NCBI GenBank assembly: GCA_048939015.1
Contig: JBHLPW010000100.1
Location: 1-12,194, forward strand
From: Promethearchaeota archaeon
Lineage (GTDB): Archaea; Asgardarchaeota; Lokiarchaeia; Sigyniarchaeales; SOKP01
Direction of reading: 5' to 3'
DNA length: 12,194 nucleotides
The stretch's first letter is position 1, and every line of letters begins with the position of its first letter. Below the pieces are notes generated by a model that ran no database searches, had not been told where the DNA came from, and was given only the letters and a program-made list of their open reading frames with translations. This document shows positions 3,089-12,194 of this stretch, piece by piece. Made by a program: the position numbers and the translations under genes.

Positions 3089-3817
3089 TTAAGGTAGAGT
3101 TACCTTTCCACTATTTTCGTCAAGATTAAGAATTCCCTTAACAGCTAGTTGTTTAATTGTTCTAACTGCCATTATTGGTGGAACATCAAGAAGTTTCTTT
3201 AGGTCATCTAACTTTGCTTCTCCCTTGTCCATGATAGTTGCAATTATATCAACTTCATGGATCTCTTCATCAGAATTTTCAATCAGAAAGGAAGTAAAGA
3301 AATTCTGCTGTCTCATTTGATTAATTTTAGATTCAAGTTCATCCATTTTTTTCTGATAAGTGTTTGTTAATTCTACTTCTCGGTTTTCGTTTTCAACTGT
3401 TTTCTGATCTAATGTAGTTTTTTCTTCTTCTTTAACAGTGATTTTTTCATTTACAGCACTAAGCTTATCCTCAAGTTGTGTGAGTTCGAATGCAGGTTTT
3501 TTCAAATCATTGATGCTGGTTTCCAAAGTATTTGTTAGCTCAGATATTTTTGCTGCTAACTCATCTTTTTTTGTTTTTAGTCCCTCAATCGTACGGTCTA
3601 GTTCTTCTGATTTTGTTCTTAATTCTGTTAACTCTGAATTTTGAGCAGTTAATTTTTCTTTTATACTTTCTTCTTCTTTTTGCTCAACTTGCATAAATCT
3701 CCATGCTTCTCTTAATTGTGAAAGTACTTCTTCATTGTGTTTCTGGAGGACTTGCCAATAAGTATCATAAGCGGTCTCAAATTGCTCGATTAATGCCAAA
3801 ATATCTTGTGAACTCAT
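3089..3817 (-). CDS. Coiled-coil protein with C-terminal winged-helix domain (hypothetical)
   Basis: 242 aa with a long heptad-rich region. The C-terminus IIATIMDKGEAKLDDLKKLLDVPPIMAVRTIKQLAVKGILNLDENSGKVTLP has HTH + beta-wing character. The start overlaps the upstream stop (TGATG), with a GGAGGT SD inside the upstream gene. Confidence 0.85.
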   Translation of the reverse strand: MSSQDILALIEQFETAYDTYWQVLQKHNEEVLSQLREAWRFMQVEQKEEESIKEKLTAQNSELTELRTKSEELDRTIEGLKTKKDELAAKISELTNTLETSINDLKKPAFELTQLEDKLSAVNEKITVKEEEKTTLDQKTVENENREVELTNTYQKKMDELESKINQMRQQNFFTSFLIENSDEEIHEVDIIATIMDKGEAKLDDLKKLLDVPPIMAVRTIKQLAVKGILNLDENSGKVTLP

Positions 3818-4563
3818 CAGAAATCAACCTCCCCTTTTAAAGTTACTGTTCCACTTCCTTGATCATACTCGATGGGACCATTTTTTTGAACCATTTTTGT
3901 TAGTATACTCTTTGCTACATCTTCTCTTAAACCCATTGCTTGAACAATAGCTTTTAGATCGAGAGTTGTATTTGGTTGTAAAGCTTGTATAAGTTTTAAT
4001 TGAGCAGATTGAATATAACCCGCCTTGATTAAAGATTTCATTGCAGCTGCTCGCATAGCATATGAATTACTAAATTTCTCCTTTTTATCATATTCAGCTT
4101 GAAGTTGTGTTTCAAGTTCTTTCATTTTGTTATCGAATTTCTCTTGTAGATCTTTTAGTTCTACTATTCTGTTTTCTAATTCATCTAACCGAGCGCTACG
4201 AGTTGCTAATTCTTCTCTTCGTGCGGAAATTTTTGTTTGAGTTTCATTAAGTTCATTCTGCGCTTCTTGGATCTTATCAAGAAGACCTTGTCTTTGAGTA
4301 TTAAGTTCAGCATTATGTTCTTCTAATGAGGAAATATCCCGTTGATTCTGAGATATCTTATTCTTTAATGAGTTGATCTCATCATCGTTAGATTCAATAG
4401 TTTTTAAATCATTGGTTTTAGATTCTTCAAGTATTCCAATTTGTTCAAGTAAGGTGTTTGGTTGAGTTTGTAATTTAGGAATCGAATCTGAATTCAAACC
4501 ATTAAGTTCTTCAATAATAGAAAGTATCTTTTTGAGGGAGCTTTTTGTATCAGTTATGCTCAT
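3817..4563 (-). CDS. Coiled-coil protein with C-terminal winged-helix domain (hypothetical; probable paralogue of the downstream gene)
   Basis: 248 aa with a long heptad-rich region. C-terminus LIQALQPNTTLDLKAIVQAMGLREDVAKSILTKMVQKNGPIEYDQGSGTVTL. AAGTGA ends 7 nt before the ATG. Confidence 0.85.
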   Translation of the reverse strand: MSITDTKSSLKKILSIIEELNGLNSDSIPKLQTQPNTLLEQIGILEESKTNDLKTIESNDDEINSLKNKISQNQRDISSLEEHNAELNTQRQGLLDKIQEAQNELNETQTKISARREELATRSARLDELENRIVELKDLQEKFDNKMKELETQLQAEYDKKEKFSNSYAMRAAAMKSLIKAGYIQSAQLKLIQALQPNTTLDLKAIVQAMGLREDVAKSILTKMVQKNGPIEYDQGSGTVTLKGEVDF

Positions 4564-5595: not shown

Positions 5596-6273
5596 TTAAC
5601 TTTCTAATTTTCTTATTTTTTTTACCAAATCATTGAGATATAAATTTCCCATCCCCAGTTTGACGATTTGAGAGAAAAATAACACTAAAGCAAATCTTAA
5701 GCTGTTAATTTCGATATAACTAGAACAAATTTTCTGATCATTTTCCAATTCTAGATACATTTTCTTTAAACGTCTTAATTTCTTCTCGCTCCTCACTTCG
5801 AATTCTTTTATTATTGAGAATAGTGTGTTGCTAGGAAGTGACGAGTAAATTACGTGTCCGTCTTCAGTAAACATCCCGCTTCCTAATATCTCTTTATCGT
5901 CTACGTAGCTTCGTAATAAACTGATAATATCTTGGAATAATTGTTGTGAGGTTAGTATAGATTTAGAATCCTCTGCTTCTGCTGAATCTTCATCACTTCT
6001 CTCGAAAAACTCCATATGAGAAAATTCAAAATCGACTTTTTGATAACCACGTACTTTAAAATTTTTATCAACAAACGATTGAAAACCATGTTCGCATACA
6101 GCTCCTGAAGGAATAGAAACAGTTGTGAGTTGTTTTGCTTGATTAATAATTTTTGAGGGGATTTTTAATTCCTTTTTAGTCCCACAAGTAGGACAGACAA
6201 CAATTATATTCTTTTCTTCTTCTTCTAATTTTACTTCTTCACTATCAATCATATGATTTGATATTATTTCCAT
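5596..6273 (-). CDS. Zinc-ribbon (CxxC...CxH) protein with a C-terminal roadblock/profilin-like domain (hypothetical)
   Basis: CPTC...CEHGFQSFVDKNFKVRGYQKVD, an acidic linker, then helix-ILGSGMFTEDGHVIYSSL-helix-beta3-helix. The fold is inferred from this pattern only. Confidence 0.8.
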   Translation of the reverse strand: MEIISNHMIDSEEVKLEEEEKNIIVVCPTCGTKKELKIPSKIINQAKQLTTVSIPSGAVCEHGFQSFVDKNFKVRGYQKVDFEFSHMEFFERSDEDSAEAEDSKSILTSQQLFQDIISLLRSYVDDKEILGSGMFTEDGHVIYSSLPSNTLFSIIKEFEVRSEKKLRRLKKMYLELENDQKICSSYIEINSLRFALVLFFSQIVKLGMGNLYLNDLVKKIRKLES

Positions 6274-6406: not shown

Positions 6407-7036
6407 TCAAATGCCAAGTTTTCTCAATTCTTTTATATAGTCGTTTACAAAATAGTTCGCCTTACCAACTCTGACCTCGTCAGAAAAAAATAGGACAGAC
6501 ACGAATTTCATACCTTCTATTTCGTGATAAATCAAATGAATTTTTTGTTTATTTTCTAATTCTAAGTATAATTTCTTTAATCTGGTTAATTTTTTCTTAC
6601 TTCTCACTTCAAGTTCTTTTATTATTAAAAACATTGTGTTATCGTAGATTGAAGAGAAAAGTATATGTCCCTCCAGAGTAAATATACCACTTCCTAAGAT
6701 TTCTTTACCATCTACGTAACTTCTTAAAATGGTAATTAATTCTTGGAACAACGGTCTTGAACTAAAAATTGCTATTGGGTCATATTCTGCATACTCCACT
6801 TGAGTGATTTCATAATCTACTTTTTGGTATCCACGTACCTTATAATTTTTGTCTACAAAAGATTGAAAGCTGTGTTCGCAACATAATTTTGAAGGTATTG
6901 AGATTGTAGTTAGTTGTTTACTGTGTTTAATTACTTCTACAGGAATTTGCAACTTTTTACTAGTAGAACATACCGGACATACTACTAGAATTTCTTGATA
7001 CGGTCCCATTACTGATAATTCATTCATTTCATTCAT
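6407..7036 (-). CDS. Zinc-ribbon + roadblock/profilin-like protein, tandem paralogue of 5596..6273
   Basis: CPVC...CEHSFQSFVDKNYKVRGYQKVD, LRSYVDGKEILGSGIFTLEGH and EVRSKKKLTRLKKLYLELEN align block by block with the neighbouring gene. Confidence 0.8.
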   Translation of the reverse strand: MNEMNELSVMGPYQEILVVCPVCSTSKKLQIPVEVIKHSKQLTTISIPSKLCCEHSFQSFVDKNYKVRGYQKVDYEITQVEYAEYDPIAIFSSRPLFQELITILRSYVDGKEILGSGIFTLEGHILFSSIYDNTMFLIIKELEVRSKKKLTRLKKLYLELENKQKIHLIYHEIEGMKFVSVLFFSDEVRVGKANYFVNDYIKELRKLGI

Positions 7037-7146: not shown

Positions 7147-8715
7147 TTATGTAGAAAATTTTTGATCAGAAAAATTTAATTTTGAGAAAGCTTCATTTCT
7201 TTTTCGACAAGATGTACAGCTACCACATGGTTGATCTCCATCACTGTAACAGCTCCAAGTCCATTTTAAAGGAACCTTCAATTTTTTCGCTAATTTTACT
7301 ACATCAATTTTAGACATTTTAGCTAAAGGAAATAATAATTTTAATGTGGTCTTATCCTTAAAGTGCTTTCCTTTATTAATAAGATCCTCAAAAGAATTGA
7401 AAAAGAGTGGAGCAGCATCAGGAAAATATTGTGGATCAACAGATATATGACCCCCTATTATGAATTTACATCCAAAAGCTTCAGCATAATAAGATGCTAT
7501 TGAATAAAAAACTAAATTCCTAGAGGGGATAAATCCTTCAGGAGCATGAACAGCACTTGGTATAGGAAATCCTTCTATTCGTAAGTCTATTGATTCCTTC
7601 AGAAATGGTAATGGAATTTCAATAATTTTAATATTGAGACTTTCTGCTAGTTTTTTAGCTGCTTTTTTTTCATTTTTAGGTCTGAGATGATAATTAATTG
7701 AAAGAGCTATTAATTCAAAACCTTCTTGATGTGCCTTGTAAAGTGCAACAGCAGAATCTATCCCACCTGATAATAAAATTATTGCTTTCTTTCCCCTTAC
7801 TTTGGATTTAGGAGTCATTTTCGCTTTAACTGCTTCTTTTATAGCTTCATTTATATCTGATAATTTATATCCAAGTGTTTCAGCTGCGATATTACCATCT
7901 GAGGTTATATCACATCTCATTATATCAATCATTTCTTTACATAGCCCGAGGAGTTCTGGAGCTTGTTCATAACTTATATGGTTAATTCGTGGTTGAGGGA
8001 TATTGAAACCTGATGTTTTCATATTCTGAAAGACTAATTCAACCAATTCAAGCATATTTATAACTTTTGGACCAACAAGATCATAGATTTGATTATTATC
8101 TCCTTTTCCATCGGCAACTGCTAGAAATGCATGAACTGCATCCTTAACAAAAATAGGTTGCATAGGAATTTTACCATTGCCAGCAACATGAACAATCCCA
8201 CTAGCAATTTGGTTTATGATCTCCGGAATTAGTTCATCATCTGGACCTAAAATATAGGATGGTCTAAAAATTATATAGGGAACGGTTCCATTTTTTAATA
8301 ATATTTCTGCTTCTTGTTTTGAATAAAAATAAGCATTAGTAGCCCATTCTTCTGTTCCATATCTATCAACGCCTAAACCTGATGGAAAAATAATTCTAGA
8401 TACATTTGCTTCCTGAGCAGCTTCGATTAATACACGCATCCCATTAATATTGATCTTCTCAAAGAGTTCTTCAGAACCACATACAACACCACGAAAATGA
8501 ATTAATGCTTTGCATCCCTCCAATACTTTACTAAGCTCACTAAAACTAAAATTTCTGATAATAACCGCTTTTGCTCCCAAAGACTCTATATCTTTTGCAG
8601 CATCTTCTCGTCGCACAATACCAATAACATCCCAACCATTTTTGACAGCTTGTATTATCGTTTGTTGTCCTAAATATCCATTAGCTCCGGTTATTACTAA
8701 TTTCTTATATTCCAT
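7147..8715 (-). CDS. queC: Fusion of an NAD(P)-binding SDR/epimerase-like domain (N-terminal) and 7-cyano-7-deazaguanine synthase QueC (C-terminal)
   Basis: N-domain: VITGANGYLG, YFYSK (YxxxK), FRPSYILG, QPIFVKD. C-domain (about 7147-7800): LLSGGIDS PP-loop, IPSRNLVF, FPDAAP, and the Zn site TWSCY...PCGSCTSCRKR. One continuous frame. Start taken as ATG 8715 (MEYKK, preceded by GAGG); 8757 is an alternative. Confidence 0.9.
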   Translation of the reverse strand: MEYKKLVITGANGYLGQQTIIQAVKNGWDVIGIVRREDAAKDIESLGAKAVIIRNFSFSELSKVLEGCKALIHFRGVVCGSEELFEKININGMRVLIEAAQEANVSRIIFPSGLGVDRYGTEEWATNAYFYSKQEAEILLKNGTVPYIIFRPSYILGPDDELIPEIINQIASGIVHVAGNGKIPMQPIFVKDAVHAFLAVADGKGDNNQIYDLVGPKVINMLELVELVFQNMKTSGFNIPQPRINHISYEQAPELLGLCKEMIDIMRCDITSDGNIAAETLGYKLSDINEAIKEAVKAKMTPKSKVRGKKAIILLSGGIDSAVALYKAHQEGFELIALSINYHLRPKNEKKAAKKLAESLNIKIIEIPLPFLKESIDLRIEGFPIPSAVHAPEGFIPSRNLVFYSIASYYAEAFGCKFIIGGHISVDPQYFPDAAPLFFNSFEDLINKGKHFKDKTTLKLLFPLAKMSKIDVVKLAKKLKVPLKWTWSCYSDGDQPCGSCTSCRKRNEAFSKLNFSDQKFST

Positions 8716-8927
8716 TTTGTGAGCATCCTCAAATTTATTATGAAAAGTAAAACTCATATTTATTTTAACTTATAAATAATTATTTTATAGAATTCAATTA
8801 AGTGATGTAAAATGTCTTATTCTAAAGAAAAAATCTTTCATATTTATTATTTTTAAACTTAAAATATAAGATTAAAATTCAAGTATTCAAATAAAATTAC
8901 AGAATATGTAAAAGTAGGTGAAACAAA

Positions 8928-9461
8928 ATAGGAAATATTATCTTCTTACAAGGAGAGAACATTGATTTATTAGTAAAAAATAAGGAACATATTGATATCT
9001 ATGTGAAATGGATAAATGATCCAAGGGTAGGGAAGTTTTTATCAGTATATCTTCCCGAGACTACCGAAGTTATAGAAAAAGAGTGGTTTCCAGAATATCA
9101 GGATGAAAAAAATATATGGTTTGAAATTTGGTATAAAGAAGATCAAAAACCAGTAGGAATGGTTGGTTTATCCAAGATTATCCATCCATATCGTAGAGGA
9201 GAGATCGGAATTTTTATAGGAGAAATAGATTATTGGGGAAAAGGGATCGGTACAGAAGCTGTGAAAATGATACTCGATTATGCGTTCAATGTTTTAAATT
9301 TACATAAAATAGTAGCTGAGGTTAGTGTTACTAATTCTCGTTCGATAGCTATGTTTAACAAACTTGGTTTTAGTGAAGAAGGGACTCTAAAAGATCATGA
9401 GTTTATTAATGGAGACTGGATAGATAATAAGATATTTGGTTTGATTAATAAAAAAAATTGA
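8928..9461 (+). CDS. GNAT N-acetyltransferase, RimJ/RimL family; probable ATA start
   Basis: Motifs GEIGIFIGEIDYWGKGIGTEAV and NSRSIAMFNKLGFSEEG. The frame extends upstream of GTG 9003 through the family-typical IFLQGENIDLL to an in-frame TGA (8919-8921). SD AGGTGA (8916-8921) is followed 6 nt later by ATA. Confidence 0.88.
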   Translation: MGNIIFLQGENIDLLVKNKEHIDIYVKWINDPRVGKFLSVYLPETTEVIEKEWFPEYQDEKNIWFEIWYKEDQKPVGMVGLSKIIHPYRRGEIGIFIGEIDYWGKGIGTEAVKMILDYAFNVLNLHKIVAEVSVTNSRSIAMFNKLGFSEEGTLKDHEFINGDWIDNKIFGLINKKN

Positions 9462-9600
9462 AAAAAGTATTATAAAATAGTATTTCTCTTACCTAAGAAA
9501 CATATACGATTTTATAAACATAAAATATAAAAATGTCAAAGGGCTTGTTGCATACAAAAATGATTATAGTAAATAAAATATTAATGGAGGCAATTTTACT

Positions 9601-10056
9601 ATCGGTTTTAAAATAAGATTAGAGTCCACGAGTATTAAATTTAGTGCATCTCACTTCTTAAAAGAACCAAGCCAATGTTCACGATTACATGGTCATAATT
9701 ACTATGTTTCTGTTGAGATTAGCGATAAATTAGATGATAAGCATTTTGTTGTTAATTTCATTGAATTGAAAGAAAATTTAGAGTCGATAGTGAAGCCTAT
9801 GAACCATTATGTTTTAATCCCAACTGAATCGGACGAGATAAAGATTCGAGAAGAGGAAGATTCTGTTGAGATCACTACTTACAATAAAAGATATGTTTTC
9901 CCCCGATCTGATGTATTTTACATACCTTTACCAGCAACTACAAGTGAGCTTTTAGCAAAATATATTCATGGTAAATTGAAAGAAATATATGAAAACAAAA
10001 AAATCTCAGTTAGAGTGGGCGAAAGTAAAAGTAATATGGCTGAATACTATGATTGA
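9601..10056 (+). CDS. queD: 6-carboxy-5,6,7,8-tetrahydropterin synthase QueD / PTPS family; probable ATC start
   Basis: The in-frame region upstream of the listed TTG (9766) encodes FSASHF and the catalytic CSRLHGHNY; TTSELLA and VGES follow. In-frame stop at 9574-9576. GGAGG at 9586-9590, then ATC at 9601. Confidence 0.9.
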   Translation: MGFKIRLESTSIKFSASHFLKEPSQCSRLHGHNYYVSVEISDKLDDKHFVVNFIELKENLESIVKPMNHYVLIPTESDEIKIREEEDSVEITTYNKRYVFPRSDVFYIPLPATTSELLAKYIHGKLKEIYENKKISVRVGESKSNMAEYYD

Positions 10057-10134
10057 GAACATGTTCAGCCAAATTAATATATTTTTTATAAAGTATTAAA
10101 AATACAAATAAAAAGATATTATTATTCCATTTTA

Positions 10135-11028
10135 ATGGTGACTGAGAAAACCTATAGACTTGGTGTACTTTACGGTATTGGCCCTGAGACAGAGATGTTG
10201 ACTCAGAAGTTTGTAGGTAATCTCATTAATAACGAAGATTTCTGTAAAGCGTGCGAAGTTTTAGAACAAAATGTAAAATGTGATAAGTGTCGAGAGCATT
10301 TAATAAATTTTGCAAATTTTATCTACTTTTATGAAAAGGTAGGAGAAAATATACCTGAGTTTGTTGAAGAACCAGATGAATTTCTCCCAAAAAATCTCCC
10401 TCCTGTTGACTTTTTAATGGTTGTAGGAATCCATCAAGATTTGCTATCTGGACTTCCTTACTATTTAAAAGATAATGGGATTAAAGCGGTCATTGTACCA
10501 ATTGAAGATCCCAAATGGGTTCCTGCCGGACTTCAAGTTCAGGTTCTAAAAGAATTCGAAAAATACGGAATTCAGGCTGCTTTTCCAAAGCCTTTCTGCT
10601 CTTTAAGTAAAGAATTAAATGAATATAATAAAATTGGATTTCATTTAACAAATAAACATAATTTTATTGATGAATTTATTGATTATTTTAAAATTGGGGA
10701 ACCAATAGTTTCATTTTTATTAAGTAAAGATGGGGAATCTATTGAGGATGTTTGTGTTATTCAAAGTGCTCCTTGTGGAAGTACTTATTACATTTGTCAA
10801 CAATTAAAAGCAAAGTATTTCAAGAATGGAAAGAGTGGGAATCTCTCTTTAAATGAAAGAATAAGTAAAGCTCATCATGCCTATCCTTGTAATGCCTCAA
10901 TGGACCAGGATTCAATCCTAAAAGATTCTATACTCCATATAGGAGGATACATAATCCGAAATGCAATTAGAAATGAGTTAAAGCTTGAAACAGAGGAAAA
11001 TCAAAAAATAGTTTACGTTATAAAATGA
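10135..11028 (+). CDS. DUF166 family protein
   Basis: Motifs IPEFVEEPDEFLP, GIHQDL, FPKPFCSL, SAPCGST and YPCNASM recognised as DUF166 from memory; N-terminal CxxC-x8-CxxC. Confidence 0.8.
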   Translation: MVTEKTYRLGVLYGIGPETEMLTQKFVGNLINNEDFCKACEVLEQNVKCDKCREHLINFANFIYFYEKVGENIPEFVEEPDEFLPKNLPPVDFLMVVGIHQDLLSGLPYYLKDNGIKAVIVPIEDPKWVPAGLQVQVLKEFEKYGIQAAFPKPFCSLSKELNEYNKIGFHLTNKHNFIDEFIDYFKIGEPIVSFLLSKDGESIEDVCVIQSAPCGSTYYICQQLKAKYFKNGKSGNLSLNERISKAHHAYPCNASMDQDSILKDSILHIGGYIIRNAIRNELKLETEENQKIVYVIK

Positions 11029-11043
11029 TTTATAAATTCTTTA

Positions 11044-11067
11044 TCTTATTTTTTATAAATAATAAGA
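11044..11067 (+). terminator. Possible terminator/hairpin after DUF166
   Basis: Inverted repeat TCTTATT...AATAAGA enclosing a T-tract, 15 nt after the stop. The AT-rich context weakens the signal. Confidence 0.3.
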
Positions 11068-11178
11068 AAAAAACTGGAAAAGCTATTAATTAAGGCTATT
11101 GATAATCTCAAAGCTTTATACAACATAAATGTTAAGTTCTAATTGAAGTGTAGCCAATCATTATATAGGTGAAAAATT

Positions 11179-12194
11179 ATTACTACTATCGCATGTTCAT
11201 CATCTATCTGTGAAATAGAAGAGGAGGAAAAAGAATCCTTTTTTGAAGAACATTTCTGGTATTTTATCATTCCTGCGGCAACTTTACTTGGAATTTCCAT
11301 ATTTTTAGAATTTGCATTCGGAATAACTTTAGTTGCTCAGATTCTGGCAATTGGTTCAATTATCCTTTCAAGTTCAGGAGTGGTTAAAGAGGCAATAGAG
11401 GATCTTAGTCATAAGAAAATAACGGCAAATTTACTAATGGTAATAGCTGGTGTTGCTTCATTTTTTATTCTTCATGGTCAAGAGGGGGCCACTGCACTAT
11501 TATTATATGCAATAGCTGAAAAACTAGAAGAAATAACAACTGAAAAGTCGAGAAACGCAATCAAAGAATTACTTGAACTTGCTCCTGATGATGCTTTATT
11601 AAAAACTGAAGATGGATATATAAATATCCCCTCGAGGGATGTGAAAATTGGAGATATTGTTGGTATAAAGCCAGGTATGAAAGTTCCTTTAGATGGTGTT
11701 ATTATTAAAGGGAGTTCCTATCTCGATGAAAGCGCAATTACTGGTGAATCTGTTCCTGTTTTTAAAGAGAAAGGTGAAGAAGTTTTTGCTGCTAGTTTAA
11801 ATTCTGAAAGCTTTATTGATATTGAAGTGGTGAGAGAAAGTACAGATACTATTGTAGCTCAAATCGCAGAAAGCGTAAAAATTGCTCAACAAAATAAGAG
11901 TGATCATGAAAAATTTATTGAGAAGTTTGCCAAATATTATACACCAATGATTCTTTTATCATCTATTTTAGTTATGACTATTCCATCAGTATTGGGACTT
12001 AACTTTTATGAGTGGTTCTATCGAGGGTTAGTATTATTAGTGGTTTCATGTCCCTGTGCTTTAACTTTATCTACTCCCTTGGCAAATATCGCATCCTTAA
12101 CAAAGCAGGCGAGAGAGGGAATTTTAGTAAAAGGAAATAAATTTATTGAAAAGCTTCAAGATATCGAAGTGTTCGCGTTTGACAAGACAGGAAC
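11179..12194 (+). CDS. Heavy-metal-translocating P1B-type ATPase (Zn/Cd-like, ZntA/CadA group); runs off the window; probable ATT start
   Basis: My translation gives DESAITGESVPV (A-domain), VVSCPCAL (TM metal site) and FDKTG at the window edge. The frame is open back to TGA 11170-11172, which lies inside SD AGGTGA (11167-11172). ATT 6 nt later gives MTTIACSSSICEIEEEE. Confidence 0.92.
   Translation, partial: MTTIACSSSICEIEEEEKESFFEEHFWYFIIPAATLLGISIFLEFAFGITLVAQILAIGSIILSSSGVVKEAIEDLSHKKITANLLMVIAGVASFFILHGQEGATALLLYAIAEKLEEITTEKSRNAIKELLELAPDDALLKTEDGYINIPSRDVKIGDIVGIKPGMKVPLDGVIIKGSSYLDESAITGESVPVFKEKGEEVFAASLNSESFIDIEVVRESTDTIVAQIAESVKIAQQNKSDHEKFIEKFAKYYTPMILLSSILVMTIPSVLGLNFYEWFYRGLVLLVVSCPCALTLSTPLANIASLTKQAREGILVKGNKFIEKLQDIEVFAFDKTG

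Follow-up and report, generated by a model that had tools for sequence, protein, structure and literature searches.

Isoleucine codons as probable Shine-Dalgarno-led translation starts in a genus of Lokiarchaeia

The window described here, 12,194 bases in length (JBHLPW010000100.1), is an entire contig (C9) of a metagenome bin (G000) that amounts to 4.86 Mb in 125 contigs with 29.9% G+C and belongs to an Asgard (Loki-type) archaeon from sediment. Four genes lie on the plus strand of this contig, i.e., the genes for a GNAT acetyltransferase, a protein of the QueD / 6-pyruvoyl-tetrahydropterin synthase family, a DUF166 protein, and a P-type (P1B-like) ATPase, the last of which leaves the contig end. 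The GNAT, QueD, and ATPase genes appear to start at ATA 8928, ATC 9601, and ATT 11179, respectively, i.e., at isoleucine codons (collectively ATH, or AUH in the mRNA), each of them behind a Shine-Dalgarno (SD) sequence. A preliminary description, made from the letters of the window, had placed the starts at these three codons, and its coordinates and motifs were recovered in the present analysis: each frame opens at a stop codon just upstream, and the first ATG, GTG, or TTG is found 25–67 codons further in. To judge from comparative sequence data, the best explanation, to which a probability of about 0.85 is assigned, is SD-led initiation of the three genes at AUA, AUC, and AUU as a habit of the whole genus, with a stringency linked to the initiation factor aIF1.

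The GNAT gene (8928–9461, plus strand; 177 amino acids and a stop codon) is supported by the Pfam family Acetyltransf_3, an orthologue, and independently assembled contigs. Its SD sequence, AGGTGA at 8916–8921 of the plus strand, is a 6-nucleotide (nt) match at an aligned spacer of 6; the TGA contained in it (8919–8921) is the in-frame stop codon that opens the frame, and six bases separate AGGTGA from ATA 8928. No canonical codon occurs before GTG 9003 (codon 26), and the Acetyltransf_3 match begins upstream of this GTG, at residue 22 of the open frame. Furthermore, the GNAT orthologue of another genome (G020), which is 94% identical, retains TGA-N6-ATA. Read-through of a TGA borne by an SD sequence was considered and ruled out, there being no in-frame ATG upstream before the next stop codon. 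Several relatives of the same genus carry tandem arrays of 4–8 GNAT paralogues of approximately 170 amino acids, nearly all of which have ATG or TTG starts.

The QueD gene (9601–10056, plus strand; 151 amino acids and a stop codon) is identified by the Pfam family PTPS and by its orthologues, and its frame is preceded by an in-frame TAA at 9574–9576. The SD sequence GGAGG (9586–9590, plus strand) is a 5-nt match at an aligned spacer of 7 and aligns with a GGGGG(C) sequence of the orthologues, located at an equal distance from their ATG. The first canonical codon, TTG 9766 (codon 56), lies behind the C-x-R-L-H-G-H motif, and the PTPS match begins upstream of this TTG, at residue 19 of the open frame, which corresponds to profile position 5. 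In 18 orthologues of the genus, the codon aligned with ATC 9601 is ATG (15) or TTG (3) at the same SD distance, and 11 QueD orthologues at the level of the order have canonical starts at the position of ATC 9601 or at most one codon from it. In a related strain (run X4 of another study; approximately 93% identity), the codon is ATT through the substitution 9603 C>T. Nearly all of the 120 best database matches have 151 amino acids, the length given by ATC 9601. The QueD protein on record comprises 140 amino acids from ATT 9634; its annotator resorted to a non-canonical start, which was placed 11 codons too far downstream. A frameshift into QueD from the out-of-frame ATG 9584 was also considered and ruled out, since this ATG is situated in the stretch aligned with the SD region of the orthologues.

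The ATPase gene (11179–12194, plus strand; running past the contig end) is supported by the Pfam family E1-E2_ATPase, orthologues, and contigs, and is preceded by AGGTGA at 11167–11172 of the plus strand, whose TGA (11170–11172) is the in-frame stop codon. An alternative ATT at 11176 is too near the SD sequence. GTG 11380 (codon 68) is the earliest canonical codon, and the Pfam match begins upstream of it. In 19 of 21 orthologues of the genus, GGTGA is followed after 6 nt by ATT (16) or ATA (3), and the remaining two comprise one orthologue with ATG 3 bases further on and one with a shifted layout. The codon directly before the ATH start varies freely among the orthologues, and the first canonical codon shifts between codons 19 and 78; there is therefore no conserved downstream start. 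In the closed genome of the same genus (G006; Lokiarchaeota bin108, CP070831.1), the ATPase is annotated with 675 amino acids from the first canonical codon, which is approximately 41 codons short.

Several local claims of the preliminary description were borne out by these data. Canonical starts, as it had stated, would remove the QueD motif, the first strand of the GNAT protein, and the first helices of the ATPase, given that the Pfam matches begin upstream of them, and the truncation that it had expected of gene callers is seen in the 140-residue QueD protein and in the shortened ATPase of bin108. The aligned SD spacing of 6–7 nt equals that of the ATG genes of the contig with starts at 996 (AGGTTA+6), 3817 (AGGTTG+7), and 4563 (AAGTGA+7). 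Within the contig, all seven genes that lack an SD sequence start with ATG, and three of the six SD-led genes start with ATH. The DUF166 gene (10135–11028, plus strand) serves as a comparison case; it starts at an ordinary ATG and lacks an SD sequence. The emphasis placed on three of four plus-strand genes is accurate for this locus, although the genes do not form a special cluster and exemplify locally what is habitual throughout the genome.

The accuracy of the bases was checked against Logan contigs, which come from separate assemblies of three runs belonging to one sediment study. These contigs are identical to the window over 8800–9017, 8925–9077, 9423–10114, 9487–9655, 10591–11400, and 11101–11400, with no difference at any of the three start codons, and the contigs of runs X1 and X3 agree in the start regions of both the GNAT and the ATPase genes. 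Errors of sequencing or assembly that changed ATG to ATA, ATC, or ATT might be suspected, since the metagenome bin is split into 125 contigs and has a contamination of 6.5%; however, the independently built contigs of three runs agree base for base, the same ATH codons are found in other assemblies, namely in G020 for GNAT and in approximately 19 genomes of the genus, one of them closed, for the ATPase, and three different third bases fit poorly to a single systematic error. This explanation retains next to no probability and, within the limits of contig evidence, can be regarded as refuted.

The frequency of ATH codons behind SD sequences was subsequently tallied over the bin. Stop-to-stop frames of at least 100 codons were used after resolution of overlaps, the first 12 codons after the frame opening were considered, and non-canonical codons were dropped if ATG, GTG, or TTG occurred at most 5 codons further on. 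An SD sequence was defined as a match of at least 5 nt to GGAGGTGAT at an aligned spacer of 5–7; because the bin yielded no 16S 3′ end, the anti-SD sequence was assumed from the consensus upstream of ATG genes. This strict tally replaced a first, broad tally over 40 codons, which was too noisy, and raw counts of GGTGA-Nk-ATH without frame context were dropped because they were swamped by 4910 mostly intragenic GGTGA sites. SD sequences were found before 150 of 2230 ATG, 50 of 613 TTG, and 10 of 315 GTG codons among the canonical starts, and before 38 of 920 ATT, 32 of 751 ATA, and 5 of 197 ATC codons; the rate for all ATH codons (75/1868) compares with 44/9830 for all other codons (odds ratio 9.3, p = 2.9e-31). 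ATH codons account for 75 of 285 SD-led starts, i.e., 26%, which is a share of the SD-led genes covered by the tally (approximately 7% of ATG starts) and not of all genes. CTG likewise shows an SD excess in this genome (3/48, p = 0.0015).

The excess is specific to spacing and frame. At spacer 6, 48 ATH codons stand against 26 other codons, whereas the in-phase spacers 0, 3, 9, and 12 have 8–13 ATH codons against 55–60 others. In 38 frames without a canonical codon, the opening stop is the TGA of a GGTGA sequence; 29 of them have ATH at offset 6, compared with 0–1 at offsets 5 and 7. ATG starts have SD spacings of 4–9, whereas ATH starts show a narrower spacing and somewhat longer SD matches. 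Use of the first canonical codon in place of ATH would cost a median of 21 and a maximum of 96 codons. Furthermore, residue 2 is small (S/T/A/G/P) in 49% of cases after SD-led ATH, with Ser alone at 29%, and in 51% after SD-led ATG, compared with 27.6% after internal ATH; this is the bias expected of proteins with a removable starting methionine.

Two further explanations are addressed by these results. The start codons might have been lost, such that the genes are dead or give shortened proteins from the first downstream ATG, GTG, or TTG; downstream starts are indeed used in the public calls, and the QueD ATC is a change from ATG in a single genome. With such starts, however, QueD would lose its zinc-binding motif, the GNAT protein its first strand, and the ATPase its Cys motif together with its first helices; the frames remain open, and the N-terminal parts are conserved at 77–94% identity. 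Given also the unfixed first canonical codon of the ATPase orthologues, the second-residue bias shared with ATG starts, and the dependence of the ATH excess on spacing and frame, a loss of start codons is very unlikely. Alternatively, GGTGA-N6-ATW might be another kind of signal, i.e., a promoter or regulatory element rather than a start site, and A+T-rich motifs are plentiful upstream of genes. That interpretation is extremely improbable, as ATH lies in frame with a long conserved frame and is absent one base to either side, its spacing equals that of ATG and TTG starts, and it aligns with ATG in orthologues.

SD-led ATH initiation extends to relatives of the archaeon. In 800 kb of bin108, of the same genus, 16 of 318 ATH codons carry an SD sequence compared with 8 of 1780 other codons (p = 1.3e-8), and in 400 kb of a genome from another family of the order (G032) the numbers are 4/178 and 4/960 (p = 0.024). 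No ATH excess was present in genomes of four other Asgard classes (G041, G077, G068, and G051; p = 0.17 to 1), and therefore the signal is not created by the method. Orthologue pairs between bin108 and the present genome comprise ATT-ATT (4), ATA-ATA (1), ATT-ATA (1), ATC-ATA (1), ATH-ATG (3), and ATG-ATG (14), indicating that the weak starts are inherited and interchange with ATG. As part of the best explanation, and with the confidence assigned to it, ATH starts are considered a habit of the whole genus; at lower frequency they probably occur in the whole order. The suggestion that the lineage routinely uses AUH codons was thus sustained for SD-led genes by the excess in both genomes and by conservation and exchange in orthologues, including the retention of ATH, or its exchange with ATG, at homologous positions in the three genes, and the tabulation of codons at SD-optimal spacing that had been proposed gave the excess at spacer 6. 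With regard to the individual codons, ATA and ATT carry the signal, whereas ATC is rare.

The decoding of ATH was assessed from alignments with distant Asgard proteins. Internal ATA, ATT, and ATC codons align to I at 37–39%, V at 18–20%, and L at 15–16%, with M outside the six commonest residues, whereas internal ATG aligns to M at 30%; the genetic code is therefore unchanged. A single initiator tRNA was found by pattern, in contig C27 at approximately 31,200–31,400 of the minus strand; it has the anticodon CAU (CAT in the gene), a GGG/CCC anticodon stem, and an A1-U72 end, looks ordinary, and is interrupted twice by introns, first after position 37/38 and again within the T arm. An anticodon arm of initiator type bearing GAU, UAU, or AAU was not found in the bin, in which detection of tRNAs is incomplete: just 13–20 tRNA genes are recovered with ARAGORN and the Rfam model, and most are missed owing to the many introns in these genes. 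A changed code, in which ATA and ATT stand for Met at every position, or else a dedicated initiator-like tRNA bearing an Ile anticodon has a precedent in mitochondria, where AUA means Met and starts occur at AUA and AUU. For the present archaeon this is scarcely credible, given that all three internal ATH codons align alike to I/V/L, unlike ATG, and that the one initiator gene has CAU, with an Ile-anticodon counterpart not found in the incompletely detected tRNA set.

The gene for aIF1/SUI1 itself has a putative ATT start (contig C27, 8581–8895, plus strand). Its frame opens two codons before this ATT, and no ATG, GTG, or TTG precedes the CPIC...CIC zinc knuckle. The ATT layout is kept in 22 of 22 genomes of the genus and in two further genera of the family (g12 and g14), and four other Asgard genera have ATA at the same place. 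The alignment of aIF1 with that of other Asgard archaea reveals order-wide substitutions (such as E-G to T-F and C-A-C-G-G to C-A-S-G-G), which are regarded as a lead only; no substitution specific to the genus was present in the alignment. A near-cognate start on aIF1 suggests a feedback similar to that of infC, by which the stringency of start selection might be set. In another Asgard family, the aIF1 genes of G042 and G053 have an apparent CTG start behind AGGTG. In Sulfolobus, rejection of AUU complexes by aIF1 has been reported, according to a review (PMC4705826).

Since the code is unchanged and the initiator has an ordinary CAU anticodon, with no Ile-anticodon initiator arm detected, an SD-anchored mismatch at the third base would be the likeliest mechanism for the ATH starts. 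The three genes would be intact and translated from AUA, AUC, and AUU. A strong SD sequence (GGAGGTGA-like) would pair with the 3′ end of 16S rRNA and position the small ribosomal subunit, such that the codon 6 (5–7) nt downstream enters the P site, where the ordinary initiator tRNA (CAU) would pair at the first two codon positions while a mismatch at the third position is tolerated. The protein would most likely start with methionine. The enabling factor would most likely be a low third-position stringency of the check controlled by aIF1, and the ATT start of aIF1 would provide an infC-like feedback on this stringency. Mutation pressure toward A+T (30% G+C), converting ATG to ATA or ATT, would most likely maintain the starts, in keeping with ATA and ATT being far commoner than ATC. 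The further generalization that a family of Lokiarchaeia has a lowered third-base check, with approximately a quarter of its SD-led genes on AUA or AUU and the set-point adjusted through an AUU-started aIF1, is tentative and is given slightly less than an even chance. Accordingly, the relaxed start-codon selection proposed in the preliminary description is supported as regards ATH use itself, whereas its suggested causes are conjectural, the initiator tRNA looking ordinary and the aIF1 differences being order-wide.

Several observations weigh against SD-led ATH initiation as a genus-wide habit linked to aIF1. ATC alone is weakly enriched (p = 0.003), and ATA and ATT carry the signal; the tally is confined to SD-led genes; support outside the genus, from the single genome of another family, is thin; and the ATT of aIF1 lies at an aligned spacer of 9 behind an imperfect SD sequence. 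In addition, the QueD ATC occurs in this genome alone among 29 orthologues, all of which are canonical, and because of this uniqueness the QueD gene could be poorly translated. For QueD, a separate explanation is that ATC 9601 is a recent damaging mutation that results in weak expression or in a start at ATA 9613 or ATT 9634. It is consistent with the canonical starts of the orthologues, the rank of ATC as the weakest of the three ATH codons genome-wide, and the public call from ATT 9634. ATC 9601, however, stands exactly at the position of the orthologues' ATG with an equal SD distance, the related strain has ATT at the same codon, ATT 9634 has no SD sequence and a start there would lose 11 conserved residues, and four ATC candidates with an SD sequence are found in the 800 kb of bin108. 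A damaging mutation in QueD is consequently judged rather unlikely, and SD-led initiation at ATC remains preferred for this gene.

Initiation at near-cognate codons is a phenomenon of an already known kind. In Escherichia coli, infC and pcnB have near-cognate starts behind SD sequences, and the NCBI translation table 11 lists ATT, ATC, and ATA as starts. In bacteria such starts concern isolated genes and are subject to a check by IF3, whereas here they make up approximately 26% of SD-led starts and would be subject to an archaeal aIF1/aIF2 check of eukaryotic type. In mitochondria, the Ile-family codons AUA and AUU are common starts in A+T-rich genomes; by contrast with the present case, in which ATH elongates as Ile and the starts depend on SD sequences, mitochondrial AUA is read as Met in elongation and no SD sequence is involved. 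Bacterial AUU, AUA, and AUC starts resemble those described here in being positioned by an SD sequence with a third-base mismatch to the initiator anticodon, and they are weak and dependent on a good SD sequence and spacing (PMC5499595). For infC, with its AUU start, and for eukaryotic eIF1, with its poor context, low levels of the fidelity factor raise its own synthesis through the weak start, as described in a review (PMC4705826). The gene for aIF1, the eIF1 homologue, is similar in having ATT and no canonical codon before the zinc knuckle, and differs in that the feedback is deduced here from sequence only.

Within Asgard archaea, a "rare ATT start codon" was proposed for AtubA in a bin of Kariarchaeaceae (Heimdall-type Asgard) in a preprint (bioRxiv 10.64898/2026.02.15.705738). 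In that case, as here, the deposited Asgard protein is too short; its first strand is recovered if the start is placed at an ATT further upstream, which follows a ribosome-binding site. By contrast, the preprint gives a methods-section remark on a single gene of another Asgard class, with no genome-wide or comparative analysis. The open literature searched yielded no genome-wide treatment of ATH starts for Asgard archaea or any others, no mention of AUU or AUA as the start of an archaeal aIF1 gene, and no description of a comparable ATH-start frequency for any archaeon. SD sites are described as rare in Loki archaea in two reviews (PMC12993045, PMC7531240); the SD sites that exist in the present genome appear to license weak start codons. 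Asgard eukaryote-like proteins have been mined almost wholly from automatic gene calls. If a quarter of the SD-led genes use ATA or ATT, many deposited proteins lack their N-termini, which bears on their folds and domain calls as well as on signal peptides and metal sites. Such initiation would furthermore offer a natural case of eukaryotic-type aIF1 and aIF2 operating at relaxed stringency, with a fidelity factor whose own gene has a weak start; it would then be possible to test how start-codon fidelity and eIF1-type autoregulation evolved.

The minus strand of the contig encodes an MCP signalling-domain gene, a TetR regulator, two coiled-coil paralogues, a kinase-like gene, two zinc-ribbon paralogues, and an epimerase-like/QueC fusion. 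The coiled-coil paralogues (3089–3817 and 3817–4563) adjoin each other, have approximately 245 amino acids each, and share base 3817 between stop and start; their Pfam matches are only weak and of coiled-coil type. The zinc-ribbon paralogues (5596–6273 and 6407–7036) are arranged in tandem; both have a CxxC motif of zinc-ribbon-like type near the N-terminus, and neither belongs to a Pfam family. At 2650–2713 of the minus strand, the Rfam tRNA model is matched in part (41.9 bits, model positions 6–65) without an ARAGORN call; this match may represent either a fragment or a tRNA whose intron is unusual. The fusion (7147–8757, minus strand; 536 amino acids) joins an NAD-dependent epimerase/NmrA-like domain to QueC and is divergent from QueD, and the same fusion is also called in bin108 (522 amino acids).

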